In this document: piece after piece, positions 4,103 through 14,074 of the stretch
Layout: every line of letters starts with the position of its first letter
How positions within the stretch are numbered: position 1 is the first letter of the stretch
Source of the DNA: a virus
Lineage: Duplodnaviria; Caudoviricetes
Reading direction: 5' to 3' (one strand)
Length of the DNA stretch: 45,434 nt
IMG/VR virus record: IMGVR_UViG_3300046001_002739
Span: 1-45,434 of that record
The notes under the pieces: generated by a model
What the model saw: only the letters and a program-made list of their open reading frames with translations
Told to the model about the DNA's origin: nothing
Databases searched by the model: none
Translations under genes and position numbers: made by a program

Positions 4103-7100
4103 TTACTTGCTGTCGGGGCTCGGCGTTCCGGTCACGGTGCCCCGTAGGGCATCGAAGGCGCTGGTCGGGTCAATCTTGTCGGTGGCCACCCCCGCCAGGT
4201 AACCGAGCGGACGGGCGACGGCGACGGCAGGCAGGCCGGTGGCCAGGCTCACAGCGCTGGCAACGTCGCGCACGGCGTTGCGGGTGTTCAGCTTGTCCGG
4301 GTCGGTGATGGCTTTGTAGACATCGACCGGCACGCCCACCGCGGACTCCAGCAAGCTCACTGCAGGTGACAGCGAGACCTTGTCGTCGGCCGGGTTGCCG
4401 TTAAACCGGTTGATACCGGCGTTGGCCAGCTGCCCGACGAACGGCACCATGGCGAGCGAACCTTTGATCGTGCCCATACCGAACACCGCGGCCAGCCAGT
4501 CATCGAGGTAACCGTCGTCGTCCTCATCGTCAGGACCACCGCGCATTGCATGCGCGATCGCCTCGGCCACCCAGATCGGGATCAGGAACCCGAGGGTCAC
4601 CACGCCGATTGCCTTGCCCGCACCCTTCTTGAGGCCCACCTCTTGTGAGATCTGCTTGAGCGCTGTCGCGTTGGTGTTGGCCATCATGTTGAAGTAGCCG
4701 ATGAACTGCGTGAAGATCCGAGCGTAGGCCGGGCCGGTCTCGATTCGGCTCACGTCCTCTGGCAGGGTCGAGCCCTGGGTGGTGCGGATCACGCTGTCGG
4801 CTGCGCGCACGGCGTCGCGCTCTCGCTCGGCCATCGCGGCCTTGACCTGATCCGAGGTAAGGCCCGTGGTGACTAGAGCGGGCAGGGAGGTCAGCGCGTC
4901 GTTGTAGGCGGCGGTCCAGATGATCGGCTCCATGGTGTTGGCCATGGCGGTCTGCATGAAGTAGGCATGCTTCTGGCTCCAGGTCTGGGCCTTCTCGTAC
5001 AGGCTGGGGTCCAGCAGGATCTGGTCCATTGCGTCGTTGATCGCCGCGATCTCGTTGTCCATCCGGTTGGCCATGAACTCGCTGGCGTCCGACACGGCCT
5101 TGGCGGTCTTCTTCGGGCTGGCGATGAACTGCGAGGTGGCCCGCATCATACTGGCGGGCTTGACCTTGAGCGCGGCCAGGCTGAACCCGGTCAACTGCTG
5201 AATCGTGTTGCTGACATTGGCGAACATCAAGGCCATGCCTGCCCGGTTGCGGGCGGCCGAGAGCACGCGGGAGATGCCGCCGTCACCCACGATCGGGGTC
5301 TCGACGATCTGGCGCGCGCTGCGGTTCAGCCAGGGGGTGAGCATGCCAGCGTAGATGGTCGGGTCGATGCGCCCCAGCGAGTAGCTCACGCCCTTGCGCG
5401 AGAGCAGCTTCTGCACGTCGCGCACCGCGGGCTCCATGTGCGAGAACAGCAGCACCTTGTCGATGTGCTGGCCGATCGTGCGCAGGTCCAGCATCAAGGG
5501 GCGGTTGTAGTCGACCCGGCCCTTGGTGAATCCCTTGTTGGTGCCAGGGAAGCTGAACGCCATGTTCTCGTTTTCAGCCTCGGCCAGCTTGCGCAGGTCG
5601 GCGTCCTGCACGATGCTGGGGTCAGCCTGTGCGGGAACGTAGCCGCCGGCGTAGCCGCCGAACGGAGTGTCGAAGCTGTCGGCGGTGACCTCGGCGAAGT
5701 AGCGCCCGAACACGTCGCGGTGGGTCTTCTGCGCCAGGGGCTTGGTCTGCTCCAGCAGATCCCACACGCCCTGGGCGAAGTCGTAGTGCGCCTTGTTCAG
5801 CACGCCGGTGTCGTGCATGCGCTGCAGGAAGGCGTCCCACTGGGTCGTGTCCATCGTGCCGTCGGCGTTTTCAGCAGCCCAGCCGCGACCGAGCAGCAGC
5901 TTGCGCTTGTTGCTGGCGTTGCCGGTGTGCAGGATCGCGTGCAGCAGCTCGGCGTGGCCGATGCCGTTGTGCCCCTTGCCGAACGTGTAGCCAAGCTCGG
6001 GCGCGTCGATCGTGCCCTTGGTGAGCGCGGGCGCCACGTTGTCGACCAGCGCCTGGTACTTCTTGCGGTAGGCCACGCGGTCGGCGCGGTAGGCGTTGGC
6101 TGCGTCCTTGACCGGCTGGAACACCAGGCGGGTGAACTCTTGGCCCATGCCCTGCGCCCACTGCTCGGTGCGTCGCAGCAGCGAGCCCACATGTTGGAGC
6201 TTGCGGGCGAGCGCCTCGCGTGGAGTCACTGCGCTTGAGTCGCCCGGCATGGTGAGAGGCACACCGATCGCCTGCATGCGGTCCTGCAGTTCGTCCTCGG
6301 CGTCCTGCATGTCCATCAGGTTGCCGTCGATCTCCATCTGGCGTGAGCGCTTGGCCAAGTGCCACATGGCCTGGATCTCCTCGTGCAGGCCACGCAGCTC
6401 CTCCATCGTGAGCGCGTCCAGTGGCTGCGCCATGTTGAGCGCACCCTGCACGCTCGGCTGCAGCGCGGCGTACATCGCCGGGTCGTTCTTGGCGACCAGG
6501 TCCATGTACTCGGCCGCGGTCTTCGCGCCCCTGGGCGCGATGCCGTAGGCGCCGAGCACGGCGCGCGCGGCGTTCACCACGTCAGGGTCTCGCCCCTTCT
6601 CGACGGTCTTCTCGTTGTTGTCCTTGATCACGCGCTTGAAGAACGTGAGGATCTTGCGCATCTCGCCCTGCGCCTCGAGCGCTGCCTTGGCGGCGGCGTT
6701 GTTAAGCACCTGGTCCTGCTTGGCCTTGACCGCGTCCTGCGTTTTGCCGGCGGCGGTGGCTTCCTGCCAGCGCTTGCCAGCGCGGCGCTCGGCGGCGGTG
6801 TGCTGCCAGGCCTTGGCCTTGAGGTCGCGCAGCGGGGTGCGGGCGACCACGTTGGCGGCGAACTGCTTGGCCGCCTCGACGATCGCGTTCACGGTGATCT
6901 TGCTGCCCTTCGCGTTGACTTCGCCGGTGTCGGCGCGCGGGTTCAGCATCTCGGCCTGAGAGCGCAGCTCGGTGGCCAGGCTGCGTGCGCGCGCCTCGTT
7001 GTGCACCGCCTCGTTGGCGGCAGCCTCGATCGCACGCTGGTCGATCAGGTCACCGTGGCGCTCCAGCATGCGCTGGTCGGTCATGCCTTCGATGGCGTCG

Positions 7101-10100
7101 GCCTTCTTGCCTGCGACGTCGATCGCCTGCAGCATGGTCGGCACGTCGGGGTAGTTGAAGCTGTCCGCGATGGTGGCCATCTGCAGGTCGTTGTCGGCGG
7201 GGATCGGTTTCTGGGGCTTGGGGTTTTCCTTCTCCCAGGCCAGCGCCTGCGCCTCTGCCTGGTTCGCCATGTCGCGCTTGTTCTTGGCCAGCAGCTGGCC
7301 CTTCTGCAAACCCTTCACCTCGGGGTTGGCTGCCAGCAGTTCCGCCTTGAGCGCCTCGGTGGCGCGCTCCAGTGCGGCCCCGCGGCGCCCGTTCCAATCC
7401 TTCAGTGCGTCCTTGAATTCAGGGGTAGATTCGCGCAGCTTGTCCAGTGCCGCCTTCGCCTGGAACTCAGGCATCGCGTCGACCTCGGCACGCACCTCGG
7501 CCTCGACACCCTTGCGCAGTTCCTTGGCCTGATCCTGCAGCTTCTTAATCTCTTTGTTGCGGGCGTTCACGGTCCACTTCAGATCGCGCAGGCTGCGCGC
7601 GGTCAGCTTCTCGACCGCCTCGGCGGTCGCGTCCTCGTTGGGCAGCAGTCCCGCCACCTCCTCGGCTTGCGCGATCTGCTCCTCGCTGGCCAGCATGCGG
7701 TCGTAGAACTGCACCATCTCGGGGGGTAGCTTGAGGTTGGAGGGTTCGTTGTTTTGGCCGTAGATGTTCGGTGAATCGGTTGGGTTCGCGTTGTCTGTCG
7801 ACTTGATTTGGTTGCTGTCGAAAGCGACGTAGACTGTTCCGTTCCCGTTGTCGTCCACCAAACCTGGGGCAAGCCAGCCAGTATCGTTTACGTCTTCAAC
7901 AATAAGTCCGTCGTGCCCTGCGCTTTTTGCACGGTTAGCCCAGTCGTCTAACTTCAACCCCTCTGGCCCATCCCCCCAGTCTTTCCCGTTCCAATCAATC
8001 ACCATCGGGTTGTTTAGTTTTAGGTAGACGTTGTAGACCCCCGGCATCTCCTCACTGTCGCTCTCCACGTCGTCGTAGCTACCGGCGTAAGACGCCGCTA
8101 CGTCGTTTCTGCTGGAAAAGAACACCCCAACATTGCTGGTGCCGAACGTGTCGAATCCCGCCTTGGGGCTTCCGTGGTACACCACCCGCGGCTTGCCCCG
8201 TGCGTCGACCACCTTGCTGTCGCCGAACCACTCGGCGAAGTTGTCGGTTTGCCCCAACGCATCCCCGCCAGCGGGGGCTGCGCTGCGCTGCGCCACGAAC
8301 GCTTTCAAACTCTTGTAGACGTTCAGCATGAACGCCTTGAGCTTGCGCATCAGGGGCTGCAGCTCGAGGCTCGGGGCCTTGCCGGTCAGCAGGTACTGCT
8401 CATACCCCTCGGCCAGCGCCTCGTGGTGGGGGCGCTTCTGGTCGAGTGTCATCGCGTTCCAGGTGTCGAGGTCGGCAATGCCCTGCCACTTCAGGAAGCG
8501 GTCGAGGTTGGCCATCAACCCGTCGGGCGGGTTGGGCCGTGCCGCGATGCGGGTCAGGATCTCCAGGTAGGCGTGCGCCATCTCGTGGTGCACGGTCGAG
8601 AGGTTGGCGTCTGGGTTCAGCGCCAGCTCGAAGCTCTTCGGATTGAAGGTGCCTCGGGGGCCTTGCTTCAGGATGTTGGGGTCGGCCGGGTCGAAGGTGC
8701 CGAAGTTGTCGACCGACTTGAGCTGGGTCGGATCGAACGCGACGAACACGTCAGAGGGTTCGCCGGCGTACCCACTGTTGCCCCCGCCGTCGTCCATGAC
8801 CTGGCGAATAATTGCCCCGTCGTTGTTTGCTTTGCGGGCGTCGCGCACCACGCTGTCGGTAGACTCATAGTGGTCGCCGGCCGGTTCGGCCCTTGCGGAA
8901 ATGTCCTCGGCGTTCAGCCGATCCAGTTCCGCATCCCGTTCACTCTCCGTGAAGAAACCCTTTCCCTCGGGCGAGTAGAGGTTGTCACCGTTTTCGTCGA
9001 ATATTTCAAATTGCTCTACGCGCGAACCGTCCCAGTTGGCGCCCTCGAAGTTGGCTTCGTTGGGGCTGCGAATGTTGACGAATAGCGGGTAGATACCCGA
9101 CTTGCTGCCGTTCTGGAACGGGTCGCCGGTCATGTCCTCTGGGGTAAAGTTCTCACCACCGCGGTTGCGCTTCACGTAGCTGCGCGCCATTTGGCGATTG
9201 GGTGTTAGGAAGATGCCCAGGTCGCCGCGGTTCTTTCCCCCGGGCGTTTTGAACTCGGTGAAGCCGCCAATGTCAGTGCCGTGGTAAACGACTAGGGGTT
9301 CGCCGTTCTCGTCGACAGCCTTGGAGACTGAACCCGCGGTATCGGACCAGACGCCGCCCTCGACACTGGTGAAGGCTTCCCAGTCACCAAACCATGTTTT
9401 GAACTCGGGCGTGCGCACCAGCGCGTGCTGCGCGGGCGTGAGGTTGCTCGGCTTGCCGTTGGGGGCAAGCAGCGGTTGGCTTACGCCTTCTTGGGCGTAG
9501 GTTTCTCCGCTGGCGCGGCGGGCGTCGAGGGCTTCGCGGAGGAGCTGGGTCGCTTCTGCCCGAAAACCACTTGGCCGCCTTTGAGCGGGTGATTGTCCGG
9601 TAGGGGTTGTCCCCTCCTGTCCGTTACTGCCATATCCGTAGTCCTCCTTGCCGGGAAATGCGGAGTAGACCGTGTCGATTGCGACCGGGAACTCGCCACC
9701 CAATTGTTCATCCACCAGCCGGGCAAGCTCGGCGTCTTCCAGGCCTGAGTAGTTCAGGATCACCATCTGGCCGTCGGCCGTCGTGTGACCGCCGATCAGC
9801 TTCTGGCTGTCTTGCTCAAGCTCCCACAGTTTATCATAGAGCGCTGAAATCTCGGTCTCACCGTAGCCTTCAGGCAGCGTCACCGTGACCACGCCCACGG
9901 GGTCTGCACCCAGGGTCTGACGCTCGGTCACCACCATCATGCTGTCCTGTGCCAGCGCGTGGCCCAGCATCTTGGCCGCCGTGAGCGCGAGCTCGGGCCG
10001 TGCCAGGCGCAGGGTCATCGACGGGTTGGTCGCACCCATGTAGCCGCCCAGTTGCATGACGAAGTCGCCGTCGGTGCCAAGCTCCTTCAAAACCTGCGGC

Positions 10101-13100
10101 ACGATGCGTGCGGCGACCTGTTGGCTTAGGGCCAGGCGCTCGGCGCTGTCGAGCGCGTTCCACTCAGCGGTGAGCGCCGCGTCGTTGGGGTCGGGTGCGA
10201 CCTCGAACATGACCTTGGCGCTCGGGGTCTCAGCAGCGCCGATGTCGCCCTTGGCGTCGACCGCCTTCTGCGCCGGGCCTTCGTAGGTGCGGCTGGGGGT
10301 GTCGTTGTGCGGGACCTTGGTCCACGAGGGGGGCGTGATGTCGCCGGCCAGCGCAAGGATTTCTTTTTGGGCCTGCTCCTGGTCGAGCTCGCCCGACTTA
10401 TACCGCGCCCAGATGGCGTTGGCGGGCGCCTTCATGCCGCTCTTCTTTGCCGCCTCGAACAGACCGCGCACCGCTTCCCAGGTGATCGACTGCATCTCGC
10501 GTGGCAGGATGCCGCGCGCTTCGGCTGCACGGCGATAGGCCTCGAGGTAAATCGGGTAGGTGCCGTTCAGGCCGGTCATGTTGGACGAAGCGGAACCGCC
10601 GCCGCCGAACGCCTGGACCACCTCGATGTCGGCCGAGGCCAGCGGGCGCAGCAGTGCTGCCGCCACCGCGTGGGTGTCGATCGTTGCGTAACCGAGATCG
10701 CTGTTCGGCGCGAATATGTTGTTGTAAAAGTTGCGAACCTTGTGTTCTTTGCCAAGGTTGTAATAGACGTTTTCTGCGCGGCCATCCAACAGCACTGAGA
10801 TCGCTTTGCCGATCGTGCTGTAGGACTTCCACATCATCGTGGCGTCGCCGCTGCCCTCTTCGCCGTCCTCGCCCTTCTGCACGTAACCCGCTGCCCCACC
10901 CTCGGGGGTGAGCACTCGATAGGCCCGGTTGTTGTGGGTCTGGTCGTAGACACGAACCCAGCGGGCAGCGCTCTCGGGCGTGGCCAACAGTTCGCCCAGG
11001 GTCTTGCCCCGGGCCGGCACCATGTTGCGTTCGTTCGCCTCGGCGGATGCTCGGGCCGCGTTGACCTTCTTTTCGGCTTTGAGTCGGACTTCCTCGTTCT
11101 TCGACTTGAGGTTCTTGGCTTCCTTCGCTGCCGTCTTCTCGGCGGTGGCGTAGGCGCCCGCCACCAGGCGATCGGCCTCGGCCGACATCGCGTCATCCCA
11201 GGTGTGGTTGCGCAGGCCGAACACCATGTCGGCGATACGCTCGGCCTGGCTCACGTTGGCGAACCACCCGTTCTGCGGGGACAGCACCGCGATGGCGGCG
11301 GCGCCCTGCATCTCACTGATGCCGTAGCGGTTGGCCCAGGCCTCGACCGTCTTGCGCCCGCCGTCGTACCACTGCCGTGCGCGGTCGCGCATCTCTGCGG
11401 GCATGTGGTCGTGCAGCCACAGCAGGTTGTTGGTGACGTGCTCGATGAACGCCTCGACGTTCTTGACCGGGTCTTTAGCGCCCTTGCCCGTGAGCTTGCG
11501 CGTATTGGGCAGGGCCTGCAGCGCGGTGACGTTTTTCTCGAGCGTCTTGGTGTCGGAGAGCACCACGTCGAAGGTGATGTTCAGCACGTTGGCCAGGGGG
11601 TCCTCGGTCGCCTTGACGGCAGACGGCAGACGGGAGGACAGTGACTGCGCGTAGCTCTCGCTCGGCGTCGCCTGAATGAACCGCTTGATCAGCTCGGACT
11701 TGTAGACATTTGCGGTCTGGTCACCTGCGAACACGCCGGCGTCGGTCAGGGCCTGCAGCACCTCGGGGCTCTTGGCCAGCAGCTGCTGCCAGCGCGCCAG
11801 CGTGGGGGAGCCTGCGGGCAGTGCGGTGTTGGCGTTGAGCGCGTCGACCACAGCGTCGCGCCCCTTGGCCTCGCGCGTGCCTGCGGGGGCTACGCGCTGG
11901 CCGGTGGTCTTGCCTAAGCCCCCGAGCTGTTCGACCGGGATGTCTTGGTCACCCAGCATGATGACCTGACCAGACTGGGAGCCGCTCAGGCGGTCGAGGT
12001 AGCCCGAGAACCCAGCGTCCAGCACCTTGGACTCGAAGTCTTCCTGGCTGCCGCCCTTCAGGCGCAGCGGGTCGGTGTTGGAGTCGTAGACGTTGGTGAG
12101 CGTGGCCTTGTGCCCGCGGCCACCCACGCCTGCCTCTGGGTTGATGCCTGTGCCGGTGTCGGCGTAGAAGTACCCGCGCTTGGCCAGGCGCTTGTCCTTG
12201 GCATTCTTGAACGCCTCACGGTTGCTGCCCTGCAGCCCGGTGCCGTACATGCTGGTGCTGACGAACGAGCGGTCGGCCTTGCTGAAGTGGAAGCCCTCGA
12301 CGGTGATCTCGCCGGTCTTGCCCGCGTTCAACACCGCACCCTTGCCGGTCTTGTCGGTGAACACGATCGGGTCCTGCGCCCAGGCTTGCTCGGGCGTGAT
12401 ACCGAGCTCGCCGGCGATGGTCTTGTACATGGCCGCGAACATCGTCGCGCTGCCCTCGTTCACGTCCTTGCGGAACCGCCCAACGGCGTTGAGCTGGTCG
12501 AGCACGGTCTGCTCGACCGCGTCGTGGGAGGCCTGCCAGGCCTGCTGGTCGACGGCCTGGGCGATCACGCGCTCGGACTCCTGCGCCAGGAACTCCTGCG
12601 CCTTGGCGCCGGCTTCCTTGGCCTCGAACTGGCTCATCGCGCGCACGTCACCGATGCGGGCGTGCTCCACCAGCATCGCCTCAAGCGGGGTGCCGGGTGC
12701 GACCGTGAGTACGTCGCCCATCGGGATCGCCACCACGTCATTGGCGGCGAGTGCTGCCGCCATCTGCGCGGCGACACCGGGCAGCTGCGCCAGCACCTCG
12801 GGTGCTAGTTGGTTCAGGACCTCGGCGTCGACGTAGACCTCGGTCGGTGCGCCGTCGGTGCCCTCGGCCATCGACTGCACCAGGGCGCGGAATTCTTCAG
12901 GGTTGCGCTCACGTAGCAGTGCCTGGCTCGCCAGTGCCATCTGGCCCTTGATGCGCTCGGCCGACTGCTCGGCCTCGACGCCACGCTGGATTTCGACGTT
13001 GCTGCGTACTCGCACGCCAAGTGCTGCGCGCACGATCGCGGCGGAGGTGCCCGCGACGCTCGCCTCGTAACCCACGCCTTCGCCGATCTTGGCCTCGTCG

Positions 13101-14074
13101 TTGGTGAGCATTTTGCGCACCACGTCCTGCAGCACGCCCTCGGTCACCTCCTGGGTGGCCTCGATCCCGGCGGCGGCAAACTTGTCCGCCACCCAGCGCA
13201 GGGCGTTGTTCTTGATCGCAGGCGGCACCCGGTTCAACAGCGCGTCCACCCCGTATTTTTCGGTCAGCGCCGTGATGCTGGCGCCGGCGATGACCGCGGT
13301 GTCCTTCAGCGCCTGCGAGCTGTTGTCCCCCTTGACCTTCTCGTTCATCACGTCCGCGCCCTGCGCGAACAGCGAAACAAGCGAGGCCGTGCCGCCGGTG
13401 GCGATCTGCAGTCCGACCTGCTGCAGCAGCTGGCCGATACCGCCCGCCACATCGGTGGCAAAGTTCTTGTTCTCGGGTGCTGGGCCGATCACATCGCCGA
13501 GCATCTTCCAACCGCCGCCCACAGTCTTGAGCCCGCCCGCCACGTCGAGGGCCAGGCCCAGGTCGGCGCCGGTCAGATCACGCACGGCCTTGGAGACGGC
13601 CGTGAGGCCCGTGGCTCGGGCAGCAACGTCGACACCGACGCCCAGACCTGAGACCAGGGTGCCGACACCGGTGACCGCGCCTGCGGGCAACGCGCGCACG
13701 ACGTTGAAGGTCTGCTCCAGCGCGGAGAGTTCGGGGATGTGGTCGTGCACCTGGCGGGCAAACGTGCCGCCGGTGCGCATGTACTCGGCCAGTTTAGGCG
13801 AGGTCTTGAGGTGTTCGTCGGCCTTGTCCACGGCCTCCTGCAGGCGCACGTCGCGCAGGTTGCGCAGCAGTACGTCCTCTGGCGCAGGGTAGCGCTTGGC
13901 CAGGCGGGCGGCCTCGGAGGCGTCGTCCGCGCTGGTGCGGACTGCATCGTTCAACTTGAAGCGCAGGTCTTGCTGTTGGTCGCGCTCAATCGTCGCCAAA
14001 GCAAAGGGATTGCCGGTGGCCGGTGCTTGGCCAGTGGGCTCGATGTTCTTCAGCGAAAACGGGTTGTCAATCAC
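4103..14074 (-). CDS. Giant internal virion/ejection polyvalent protein (ART-like x3, HhH-glycosylase-like, SAM-lyase-like, HExxH zincin domains)
   Basis: 3323-aa ORF at the end of the ejection-protein cluster; VVYHGT and VVYHGS ART-PolyVal-type motifs, HEMAH, TIDTHA. Confidence 0.8.
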   Translation of the reverse strand: MIDNPFSLKNIEPTGQAPATGNPFALATIERDQQQDLRFKLNDAVRTSADDASEAARLAKRYPAPEDVLLRNLRDVRLQEAVDKADEHLKTSPKLAEYMRTGGTFARQVHDHIPELSALEQTFNVVRALPAGAVTGVGTLVSGLGVGVDVAARATGLTAVSKAVRDLTGADLGLALDVAGGLKTVGGGWKMLGDVIGPAPENKNFATDVAGGIGQLLQQVGLQIATGGTASLVSLFAQGADVMNEKVKGDNSSQALKDTAVIAGASITALTEKYGVDALLNRVPPAIKNNALRWVADKFAAAGIEATQEVTEGVLQDVVRKMLTNDEAKIGEGVGYEASVAGTSAAIVRAALGVRVRSNVEIQRGVEAEQSAERIKGQMALASQALLRERNPEEFRALVQSMAEGTDGAPTEVYVDAEVLNQLAPEVLAQLPGVAAQMAAALAANDVVAIPMGDVLTVAPGTPLEAMLVEHARIGDVRAMSQFEAKEAGAKAQEFLAQESERVIAQAVDQQAWQASHDAVEQTVLDQLNAVGRFRKDVNEGSATMFAAMYKTIAGELGITPEQAWAQDPIVFTDKTGKGAVLNAGKTGEITVEGFHFSKADRSFVSTSMYGTGLQGSNREAFKNAKDKRLAKRGYFYADTGTGINPEAGVGGRGHKATLTNVYDSNTDPLRLKGGSQEDFESKVLDAGFSGYLDRLSGSQSGQVIMLGDQDIPVEQLGGLGKTTGQRVAPAGTREAKGRDAVVDALNANTALPAGSPTLARWQQLLAKSPEVLQALTDAGVFAGDQTANVYKSELIKRFIQATPSESYAQSLSSRLPSAVKATEDPLANVLNITFDVVLSDTKTLEKNVTALQALPNTRKLTGKGAKDPVKNVEAFIEHVTNNLLWLHDHMPAEMRDRARQWYDGGRKTVEAWANRYGISEMQGAAAIAVLSPQNGWFANVSQAERIADMVFGLRNHTWDDAMSAEADRLVAGAYATAEKTAAKEAKNLKSKNEEVRLKAEKKVNAARASAEANERNMVPARGKTLGELLATPESAARWVRVYDQTHNNRAYRVLTPEGGAAGYVQKGEDGEEGSGDATMMWKSYSTIGKAISVLLDGRAENVYYNLGKEHKVRNFYNNIFAPNSDLGYATIDTHAVAAALLRPLASADIEVVQAFGGGGSASSNMTGLNGTYPIYLEAYRRAAEARGILPREMQSITWEAVRGLFEAAKKSGMKAPANAIWARYKSGELDQEQAQKEILALAGDITPPSWTKVPHNDTPSRTYEGPAQKAVDAKGDIGAAETPSAKVMFEVAPDPNDAALTAEWNALDSAERLALSQQVAARIVPQVLKELGTDGDFVMQLGGYMGATNPSMTLRLARPELALTAAKMLGHALAQDSMMVVTERQTLGADPVGVVTVTLPEGYGETEISALYDKLWELEQDSQKLIGGHTTADGQMVILNYSGLEDAELARLVDEQLGGEFPVAIDTVYSAFPGKEDYGYGSNGQEGTTPTGQSPAQRRPSGFRAEATQLLREALDARRASGETYAQEGVSQPLLAPNGKPSNLTPAQHALVRTPEFKTWFGDWEAFTSVEGGVWSDTAGSVSKAVDENGEPLVVYHGTDIGGFTEFKTPGGKNRGDLGIFLTPNRQMARSYVKRNRGGENFTPEDMTGDPFQNGSKSGIYPLFVNIRSPNEANFEGANWDGSRVEQFEIFDENGDNLYSPEGKGFFTESERDAELDRLNAEDISARAEPAGDHYESTDSVVRDARKANNDGAIIRQVMDDGGGNSGYAGEPSDVFVAFDPTQLKSVDNFGTFDPADPNILKQGPRGTFNPKSFELALNPDANLSTVHHEMAHAYLEILTRIAARPNPPDGLMANLDRFLKWQGIADLDTWNAMTLDQKRPHHEALAEGYEQYLLTGKAPSLELQPLMRKLKAFMLNVYKSLKAFVAQRSAAPAGGDALGQTDNFAEWFGDSKVVDARGKPRVVYHGSPKAGFDTFGTSNVGVFFSSRNDVAASYAGSYDDVESDSEEMPGVYNVYLKLNNPMVIDWNGKDWGDGPEGLKLDDWANRAKSAGHDGLIVEDVNDTGWLAPGLVDDNGNGTVYVAFDSNQIKSTDNANPTDSPNIYGQNNEPSNLKLPPEMVQFYDRMLASEEQIAQAEEVAGLLPNEDATAEAVEKLTARSLRDLKWTVNARNKEIKKLQDQAKELRKGVEAEVRAEVDAMPEFQAKAALDKLRESTPEFKDALKDWNGRRGAALERATEALKAELLAANPEVKGLQKGQLLAKNKRDMANQAEAQALAWEKENPKPQKPIPADNDLQMATIADSFNYPDVPTMLQAIDVAGKKADAIEGMTDQRMLERHGDLIDQRAIEAAANEAVHNEARARSLATELRSQAEMLNPRADTGEVNAKGSKITVNAIVEAAKQFAANVVARTPLRDLKAKAWQHTAAERRAGKRWQEATAAGKTQDAVKAKQDQVLNNAAAKAALEAQGEMRKILTFFKRVIKDNNEKTVEKGRDPDVVNAARAVLGAYGIAPRGAKTAAEYMDLVAKNDPAMYAALQPSVQGALNMAQPLDALTMEELRGLHEEIQAMWHLAKRSRQMEIDGNLMDMQDAEDELQDRMQAIGVPLTMPGDSSAVTPREALARKLQHVGSLLRRTEQWAQGMGQEFTRLVFQPVKDAANAYRADRVAYRKKYQALVDNVAPALTKGTIDAPELGYTFGKGHNGIGHAELLHAILHTGNASNKRKLLLGRGWAAENADGTMDTTQWDAFLQRMHDTGVLNKAHYDFAQGVWDLLEQTKPLAQKTHRDVFGRYFAEVTADSFDTPFGGYAGGYVPAQADPSIVQDADLRKLAEAENENMAFSFPGTNKGFTKGRVDYNRPLMLDLRTIGQHIDKVLLFSHMEPAVRDVQKLLSRKGVSYSLGRIDPTIYAGMLTPWLNRSARQIVETPIVGDGGISRVLSAARNRAGMALMFANVSNTIQQLTGFSLAALKVKPASMMRATSQFIASPKKTAKAVSDASEFMANRMDNEIAAINDAMDQILLDPSLYEKAQTWSQKHAYFMQTAMANTMEPIIWTAAYNDALTSLPALVTTGLTSDQVKAAMAERERDAVRAADSVIRTTQGSTLPEDVSRIETGPAYARIFTQFIGYFNMMANTNATALKQISQEVGLKKGAGKAIGVVTLGFLIPIWVAEAIAHAMRGGPDDEDDDGYLDDWLAAVFGMGTIKGSLAMVPFVGQLANAGINRFNGNPADDKVSLSPAVSLLESAVGVPVDVYKAITDPDKLNTRNAVRDVASAVSLATGLPAVAVARPLGYLAGVATDKIDPTSAFDALRGTVTGTPSPDSK
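9481..9633 (-). CDS. Overprinted 50-aa protein nested out of frame in the giant gene
   Basis: AAGGAGG (9643-9649) 9 nt before the ATG; MAVTDRRGQPLPDNHPLKGGQVVFGQKRP... Confidence 0.55.
   Translation of the reverse strand: MAVTDRRGQPLPDNHPLKGGQVVFGQKRPSSSAKPSTPAAPAEKPTPKKA

Follow-up and report, generated by a model that had tools for sequence, protein, structure and literature searches.

Does a 50-codon reading frame that lies out of frame inside a giant phage gene encode a protein, and what might such a protein do? The window analysed here, a stretch of 45,434 nucleotides comprising the complete 45,434-bp virus record IMGVR_UViG_3300046001_002739, raises this question within a single long gene (hereafter the host gene), located in the internal-virion-protein block of a podovirus-like phage, where it follows portal, capsid, tail and internal-virion genes. 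The host gene has the hallmarks of a polyvalent protein: it is giant, multi-domain, carries LPD/ART-PolyVal domains and sits among virion genes. LPD22 and ART-PolyVal are also found in the polyvalent proteins described by Iyer et al. 2017 (PMC5512222), for which packaging and injection were predicted and zeta-like kinases were listed among the domains. The features referred to below are as follows:

4103..14074, minus strand: host gene for a 3,323-aa polyvalent protein (LPD22, DUF7178, two ART-PolyVal stretches)
9629..10216, minus strand: upstream host domain, approximately aa 1287–1482, made up of a SAM-lyase-like unit and another ferredoxin-like unit, and predicted to be the peptide's partner
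9643..9649, minus strand: Shine-Dalgarno (SD) sequence AAGGAGG for the nested gene, lying in the host K-E-D codons
9481..9633, minus strand: nested +1-frame gene, 50 aa plus TAA, recognised by its conserved start, open frame and selection in the +1 frame
9547..9633, minus strand: conserved core of the peptide, residues 1–29, delimited from alignments and from free-standing copies that match the core and diverge after it
9527..9565, minus strand: recurrent helix-like motif of the host frame, FRAEATQLLREAL, overlapping the hydrophobic-G-x-K-x-P segment of the peptide
8705..9313, minus strand: ART-PolyVal module downstream of the nested ORF, a position occupied by varying modules among loci

Conservation and selection in the +1 frame

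The nested ORF runs on the same strand as the 3,323-aa host ORF (14074–4103), in its +1 frame and across host residues 1481–1532, with AAGGAGG at 9649–9643, a 9-nt spacer, ATG at 9633–9631 and TAA at 9483–9481. These coordinates agree with the earlier note, which had reported an AAGGAGG-N9-ATG signal in a shifted frame of the same strand and a gene ending beside the YAQ border; the peptide is exactly as noted there, and its stop falls three codons past the host YAQ. With a duplex energy of -11.4 kcal/mol, the SD of the nested start is the second strongest among 79 out-of-frame ATG/GTG codons in the host gene, and two other out-of-frame starts with a comparable SD open just 6 and 8 codons. A weak sigma70-like site upstream of the nested SD (9861–9833, minus strand) was considered as an internal promoter and rejected, as its -10 hexamer occurs in just 2/86 homologues.

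The core of the peptide consists of P-L-P-D-N-H-P-L-K-G-G, three or four hydrophobic residues and G-x-K-x-P, and is followed beyond residue 29 by a variable tail rich in Pro, Lys, Ser and Ala. The core itself is variable, with 31% mean column identity and three subtypes. No family in Pfam or PHROG was matched by the peptide, which is also missing from ~15 billion called proteins; a homologous ORF in a GenBank record carries no annotation there, and no RNA was listed as a holder of the nested region.

Homologues were gathered through the upstream host domain and not through the peptide, producing 157 loci, 155 of them with the domain and 143 usable. The 12 loci dropped comprised nine partial domains at contig ends, L114, which was too near an end (the nested ORF is present there), and L058/L061, discussed below. 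At 90% nucleotide identity the usable loci formed 87 clusters, of which 86 have a +1 start at the end of the domain (85 ATG, one GTG); the remaining cluster, L105, has TAC at the start site, but AAGGAG-N6-GTG opens the core motif. The host Tyr codon that forms the start is TAT in 82 of 83 cases, L105 counted, compared with 18/81 for the Tyr codon two codons upstream and 672/1,777 for other Tyr-before-G codons. In clusters with no Tyr at this site, codons for Asp, His or Arg supply the start instead, and in L058/L061 an Asn codon does so.

The ribosome-binding signal and the open frame follow the same pattern. An SD duplex of -4 kcal/mol or stronger precedes the start in 92% of 86 homologues versus 33% of 3,471 other +1 ATGs, is stronger than under synonymous recoding in 68/86, and contains a GGAG/GAGG/AGGA core in 76/86. 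The +1 frame is open for 43–99 codons in all 86, compared with an expectation of 45/86 reaching 40 codons after recoding; elsewhere, 22% of 3,396 windows are open to the same length. The SD, the start and the frame, whose conservation in homologous modules the earlier note had proposed as a check, are therefore all conserved, whereas its description of the SD as perfect holds for this genome and is atypical of the family, AAGGAGG being present in 11/86 homologues.

Substitution patterns point in the same direction. Across 37 disjoint pairs, the third position of host codons was the most variable within the domain (0.263), and over nested codons 2–28 this usual pattern was reversed, with host third positions at 0.091 and host position 1, the wobble position of the +1 frame, the highest at 0.148; the same pairs gave 0.092 vs 0.314 in favour of purifying selection on the alternative frame. 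A second test used 28 pairs whose colinearity extends further. In the core, changes that are silent in the host but alter the peptide occurred at a rate of 0.059, while host-silent rates in control regions were 0.225 (domain), 0.217 (upstream linker) and 0.235 (codons 70–110), giving a core-to-control ratio of 0.26 (bootstrap CI 0.19–0.33). Peptide-silent changes exceeded doubly non-silent ones 1.8-fold (1.15–3.08). The comparison of constraint in both frames suggested earlier thus places the +1 frame under purifying selection. The accompanying claim that the main frame reads like low-constraint sequence is partly right: substitutions that change the host protein but not the peptide occur at 0.104, compared with ~0.225 for host-silent ones in the domain, and an R-x-E-A-x-x-L-L helix of the host protein recurs within the overlap, so that the host frame is not free there.

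That the nested ORF is a real gene is, on this evidence, close to certain, and we give scarcely any credence to the possibility that no functional peptide is made and that the +1 ORF is only a shadow cast by host constraints, or else acts as an RNA element or as a device for frameshifting or translational coupling. The host frame is indeed constrained over the overlap, and the Ser-Ser pair of the peptide mirrors host Leu-Leu codons. Such a shadow, however, fits poorly with suppressed host wobble and with variability that peaks at the +1 wobble; the overlap gave no sign of RNA structure (z 0.04), coupling back into the host frame was rejected with a host-frame SD plus ATG near the nested stop in 0/86, and free-standing copies keep the amino-acid core with no host ORF around it.

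Linkage of the peptide to a SAM-lyase-like domain

Among 81 loci the upstream domain is constant, whereas the next module falls into 21 clusters; with the downstream module varying in this way, the ART-PolyVal module is not a conserved partner. The small gene is therefore tied to the enzyme module, which is the linkage that characterises toxin–immunity and type II toxin–antitoxin pairs. Peptide-first scans added five new nested loci, some of them very divergent, all with the domain upstream, and a nested peptide behind another module was never seen in the loci examined. Its position is kept even though the domains are just ~30–40% identical. A cultured relative, phage zth2-2 (OL791268), has the module as well. 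L058/L061 had seemed to offer the domain without the peptide, a candidate that was rejected, since the ORF lies ~130 codons further on behind an insertion. This insertion of ~130 residues displaces the host helix and the nested ORF together, away from the domain, and the nested ORF may therefore be tied to the host helix as part of the module. With SD, start and frame conserved, selection in the +1 frame, and attachment to the upstream domain over 21 downstream clusters, the proposal that the nested gene travels with its module is upheld, and we consider it probable, with good confidence, that the peptide is a partner of the upstream module.

Copies of the peptide also exist outside any long host frame. 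An alignment of the whole peptide family varied too much to serve as the seed for a DNA scan, and free-standing copies were sought for one subtype only. Such copies, each with its own SD, were recovered in L002, L003, L160 and L166; they keep residues 1–29 and differ after them. The domain was found in 0/5 records carrying free copies, all of them incomplete or of unknown completeness. In L166 (940–1140), near a DUF4747 gene, a remnant of host K-E-E-Y-D-Y serves as the SD directly behind a terminator-like hairpin, so that this copy looks as if it had been excised. The copies in L002 (2255–2425) and L003 (351–530) lie on the opposite strand to a terminase-like gene, and L002 adjoins recA-like and cinA-like genes (labels recognised by eye), neighbours that suggest a satellite-like element. 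A 161-aa ORF in an Ideonella MAG (L161:7974–8459) begins with the peptide core. A further peptide-first match, L163, looks spurious.

The upstream domain was modelled with AF2 at a pLDDT of 93 as two ferredoxin-like units. SAM-lyase structures came near the top of both wide fold searches (VIA), tied with or below unrelated ferredoxin-like chains, with Z scores of 8.1 (rmsd 3.3, 97 aligned) and 6.7 to 6zm9, 7.2 to 7ock, and 7.0 and 7.1 to 9gab; in neither search did they rank above RND porter domains or BMY-1. PF23780 was the family touched by most members (8/85 at E ≤ 1, best 2.2e-4), and its curated cut-off was passed by none, the member in the window reaching 12.3 bits vs a cut-off of 28. 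Alignment of the domain to a PF23780 member with hhalign gave E 2.9e-5 (probability 73.5) and brought both lyase motifs into register, namely G-x-Y-x-G...S and Q-[DE]-S-[MI], which the domain appears to share with SAM lyases. A PDB sequence search with the domain returned nothing significant, Foldseek on PDB generic ferredoxin/ACT-like matches only, and ESM Atlas no named family.

Sequence motifs and predicted fold together suggest that the domain is homologous to SAM lyases. Its likely catalytic column is another matter: this is Glu in three stand-alone SAM lyases and Asn in 217/227 domain rows. Judging by the motif rather than by superposition, we infer that the column corresponds to E69 of the SAM lyase Svi3-3, a residue critical in that enzyme, which is toxic when expressed (Guo et al., PMC7877911). 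The Gln, which together with Glu makes up the residues shared by SAM lyases and SAM-AMP lyases (Chi et al., PMC12255297), is kept in 226/227 rows. A different Glu, located where strand 1 ends, is retained in 221/227, and this invariant Glu might substitute for the lost one. One PF23780 member above the cut-off likewise has Asn at the column. In the divergent L176 domain (5370–5987) Glu is kept at the lyase position and the nested peptide is still present; a scan for relatives of this domain returned only L176 itself. The label SAM-lyase-like given earlier to the domain is accordingly supported as a statement of homology, with the reservations that the likely catalytic Glu is replaced by Asn and that the PF23780 cut-off is missed.

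In its ferredoxin-like unit and invariant Gln the domain resembles SAM lyases (Svi3-3, T3 SAMase, PF23780) and SAM-AMP lyases; it differs from SAM lyases in lying inside a giant protein, in its second ferredoxin-like unit, in having Asn for the likely Glu and in its nested partner. The three stand-alone SAM lyase genes have no overlapping SD-led ORF.

Other modules with +1 genes of their own

An unbiased scan of 86 loci for further recurrent SD-led out-of-frame ORFs found additional +1 families at module borders, a recurrence that the earlier note missed. One of them, comprising peptides of 56–63 aa with a predicted helical structure and an N-L-D-Q motif, lies directly after a DUF7178-like module (for example L033:2792, L040:2792 and L024:2801). 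Its start is present in 21/21 clusters, picked by host motif, and its peptide-changing rate is 0.108 vs 0.375 (12 pairs). In the window, the host protein's own DUF7178 and two ART-PolyVal modules have no strong-SD nested ORF of useful length.

Another family follows a Zeta_toxin domain, identified by a Pfam match above the cut-off. As a prediction test, the best 80 of 111 viral zeta loci were fetched (L180–L259, 41 clusters). A +1 ORF of 52–70 aa, different from the SAM-module peptide, was present in 40/41 clusters of these best 80 of 111 loci, the search window being 33 codons wide, so that the evidence here is the clustering of position and length and not mere presence: 30 of the 40 ORFs start 28–31 codons after a D-N-S motif. 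The same best 80 of 111 loci included 13 clusters of short zeta genes that end just past the domain, 12 of them with the +1 ORF, and in the three short genes inspected the ORF begins within the 3' end of the toxin gene and takes up precisely the space before the next gene. Selection on the +1 frame is strong downstream of the toxin stop (0.056 vs 0.288, 16 pairs), and nested Zeta versions gave 0.14–0.18 vs 0.354 (13 pairs). Examples of the ~60-aa +1 ORFs of Zeta modules are L032:1124 and L204:2129–2308. In MW202577, a zeta homologue in GenBank, the usual place holds no SD-led +1 ORF; a 40-aa ORF in the +1 frame, with no SD, begins 20 nt before the zeta stop. In a different carrier gene of 1,143 aa (L018:442–3873), Zeta and SAM-lyase-like modules occur together, with a nested ORF for each.

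The gene order of the phage zeta modules and their partner is that of AvrRxo1/Arc1, a bacterial zeta-fold toxin with a small antitoxin gene downstream (PMC4938570); the likeness drawn here is one of order, and AvrRxo1 and Arc1 are separate genes in bacteria.

Two more +1 families stand at the N-terminal border of other modules; their members either have a separate SD or are joined in frame to the SAM-module peptide, and in three loci an ORF of this type starts no more than 3 nt from the stop of the SAM-module peptide. At the A-P-L-E-G-A-P module, the border family has its own SD in L006, L078 and L082 and is fused to the SAM-module peptide in L010–L013, L087, L088 and L098. Upstream of the G-x-H-Y-S module, the corresponding family occurs behind different upstream modules in L054, L055, L064–L075 and L129, with fused-looking forms in L007–L009 and L158. 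Collectively, at least five peptide families were seen (SAM-lyase-like, Zeta kinase, DUF7178-like and two modules of other kinds), sometimes in tandem or fused.

A proposed antidote role, its rivals and its implications

Our best reading, in which confidence and doubt are about equally balanced, is that these are module-specific antidote genes that became nested once toxin–partner cassettes had fused into polyproteins. The nested gene would use its own SD for translation from the late mRNA that also encodes the host protein, and the 29-residue core would dock on the upstream domain, the tail being dispensable. While the giant protein is being made, the peptide would bind and silence the SAM-lyase-like domain in the producing cell; the giant protein would then enter the virion and be ejected into the next host unaccompanied by the peptide, releasing the domain, which may act there against SAM-dependent or nucleotide-based defences of the host. 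As to origin, an enzyme gene and an overlapping downstream partner gene would have fused into the polyprotein, the host frame running on through the partner and leaving it nested, and the stand-alone phage zeta genes with an overlapping partner suggest such a fusion. Counting against this reading are the variability of the core and the ORF in L058/L061, which stays with the host helix and not with the domain end.

Comparable arrangements have been described in part. In MuF Apk2/IapK a phage enzyme domain is followed by a small gene for a cognate binding inhibitor (PMC12226406), an order found here as well, inhibition in our case being a proposal by analogy; the MuF toxin, however, lies at the C-terminus with its immunity gene beyond the stop, whereas in the present gene the domain has an internal position and the partner lies wholly within the gene in another frame. 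In Rpn intragenic antitoxins (10.1101/2023.05.02.539157) a small gene within a larger one likewise uses an internal start, and its product inhibits the larger product. RpnS, however, is in frame, identical to the toxin C-terminus and part of bacterial defence, while the nested start reported here lies in the +1 frame and not in the toxin frame, within a phage virion protein, and belongs to one of several families.

Whether the peptide is an inhibitor specifically could, in our judgement, go either way. Asn in place of the likely catalytic Glu means that the domain may not be a toxic lyase in need of an antidote, and this was counted against inhibition together with the lack of a nested ORF after the host protein's own ART-PolyVal and DUF7178 modules and at the three stand-alone lyases. 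The same replacement would suit a module-specific folding, packaging or ejection chaperone or adaptor that binds the domain or the host helix with no catalytic block, an explanation we regard as unlikely, though with some weight. It fits the linkage and selection data equally and would accommodate nested ORFs at the N-terminal border of two modules with no assigned activity; the E. coli GndA out-of-frame microprotein, which relocalises the product of its host gene (10.64898/2026.10.22.760973), provides a possible parallel. Like GndA, the peptide is an out-of-frame product proposed by analogy to act on the product of its enclosing gene; unlike it, GndA is a single cellular case with a role in localisation and no modular cassette. 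A chaperone is harder to reconcile with stand-alone zeta genes of ~300 aa that retain the partner ORF, and with free-standing peptide copies persisting in records (all incomplete) in which no domain was detected. Of the two roles named in the earlier note, inhibitor and chaperone, the Zeta-toxin parallel favours the former by analogy.

A target outside the virion protein is decidedly unlikely in our view: the peptide would then be directed at a host target or at rival phages coming in (exclusion), independently of its own domain, and its linkage would be hitch-hiking. Free-standing copies in satellite-like or island contexts (L002, L003, L160, L166) are consistent with this, and physical overlap alone would make peptide subtypes track the domain tree, a quick tree on which subtype clustering is expected from linkage alone. 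Hitch-hiking sits uneasily, however, with one position kept across such divergent domains, with the absence of the peptide from behind any other module in the loci examined, and with a separate peptide family for every module type. Highly unlikely, finally, is an activator or completing subunit, contributing for instance an added beta-strand, or a peptide co-delivered with the domain in the virion. A conserved short hydrophobic strand-like segment followed by G-x-K-x-P, and a domain devoid of the canonical Glu position, would suit such a role; yet the peptide has no conserved acidic residue able to supply catalysis, and the order of toxin then small gene usually denotes an inhibitor in the systems cited.

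We take the overprinted gene family to be real and, as far as could be seen, undescribed, with a recurring architecture. In the main text of the polyvalent-protein survey (PMC5512222) the terms 'overlap', 'small protein' and 'frameshift' are absent, and the passages searched yielded no nested partner genes; in wider searches of literature listings, drawn mostly from outside the subscription journals, nothing on out-of-frame genes nested in polyvalent virion genes came up. Extending the antidote reading, we tentatively propose, as an idea somewhat more likely to fail than to hold, that polyvalent virion genes are double-coded, the main frame carrying effector modules and the +1 frame a hidden operon of 45–100-aa module-specific inhibitors that move with the modules, and that the free-standing satellite or island copies are antidotes captured against incoming phage effectors.

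An antidote of this kind would give a testable answer to how a phage, late in infection, can mass-produce a polyprotein that is injected and damages its host, yet spare the cell in which the virions are assembled. The family reveals small genes of a kind overlooked by gene callers, and a nested partner could mark those uncharacterised polyvalent domains that are harmful enzymes and could supply the inhibitor needed for cloning them. It could also show how overlapping genes arise by module fusion and not purely de novo.
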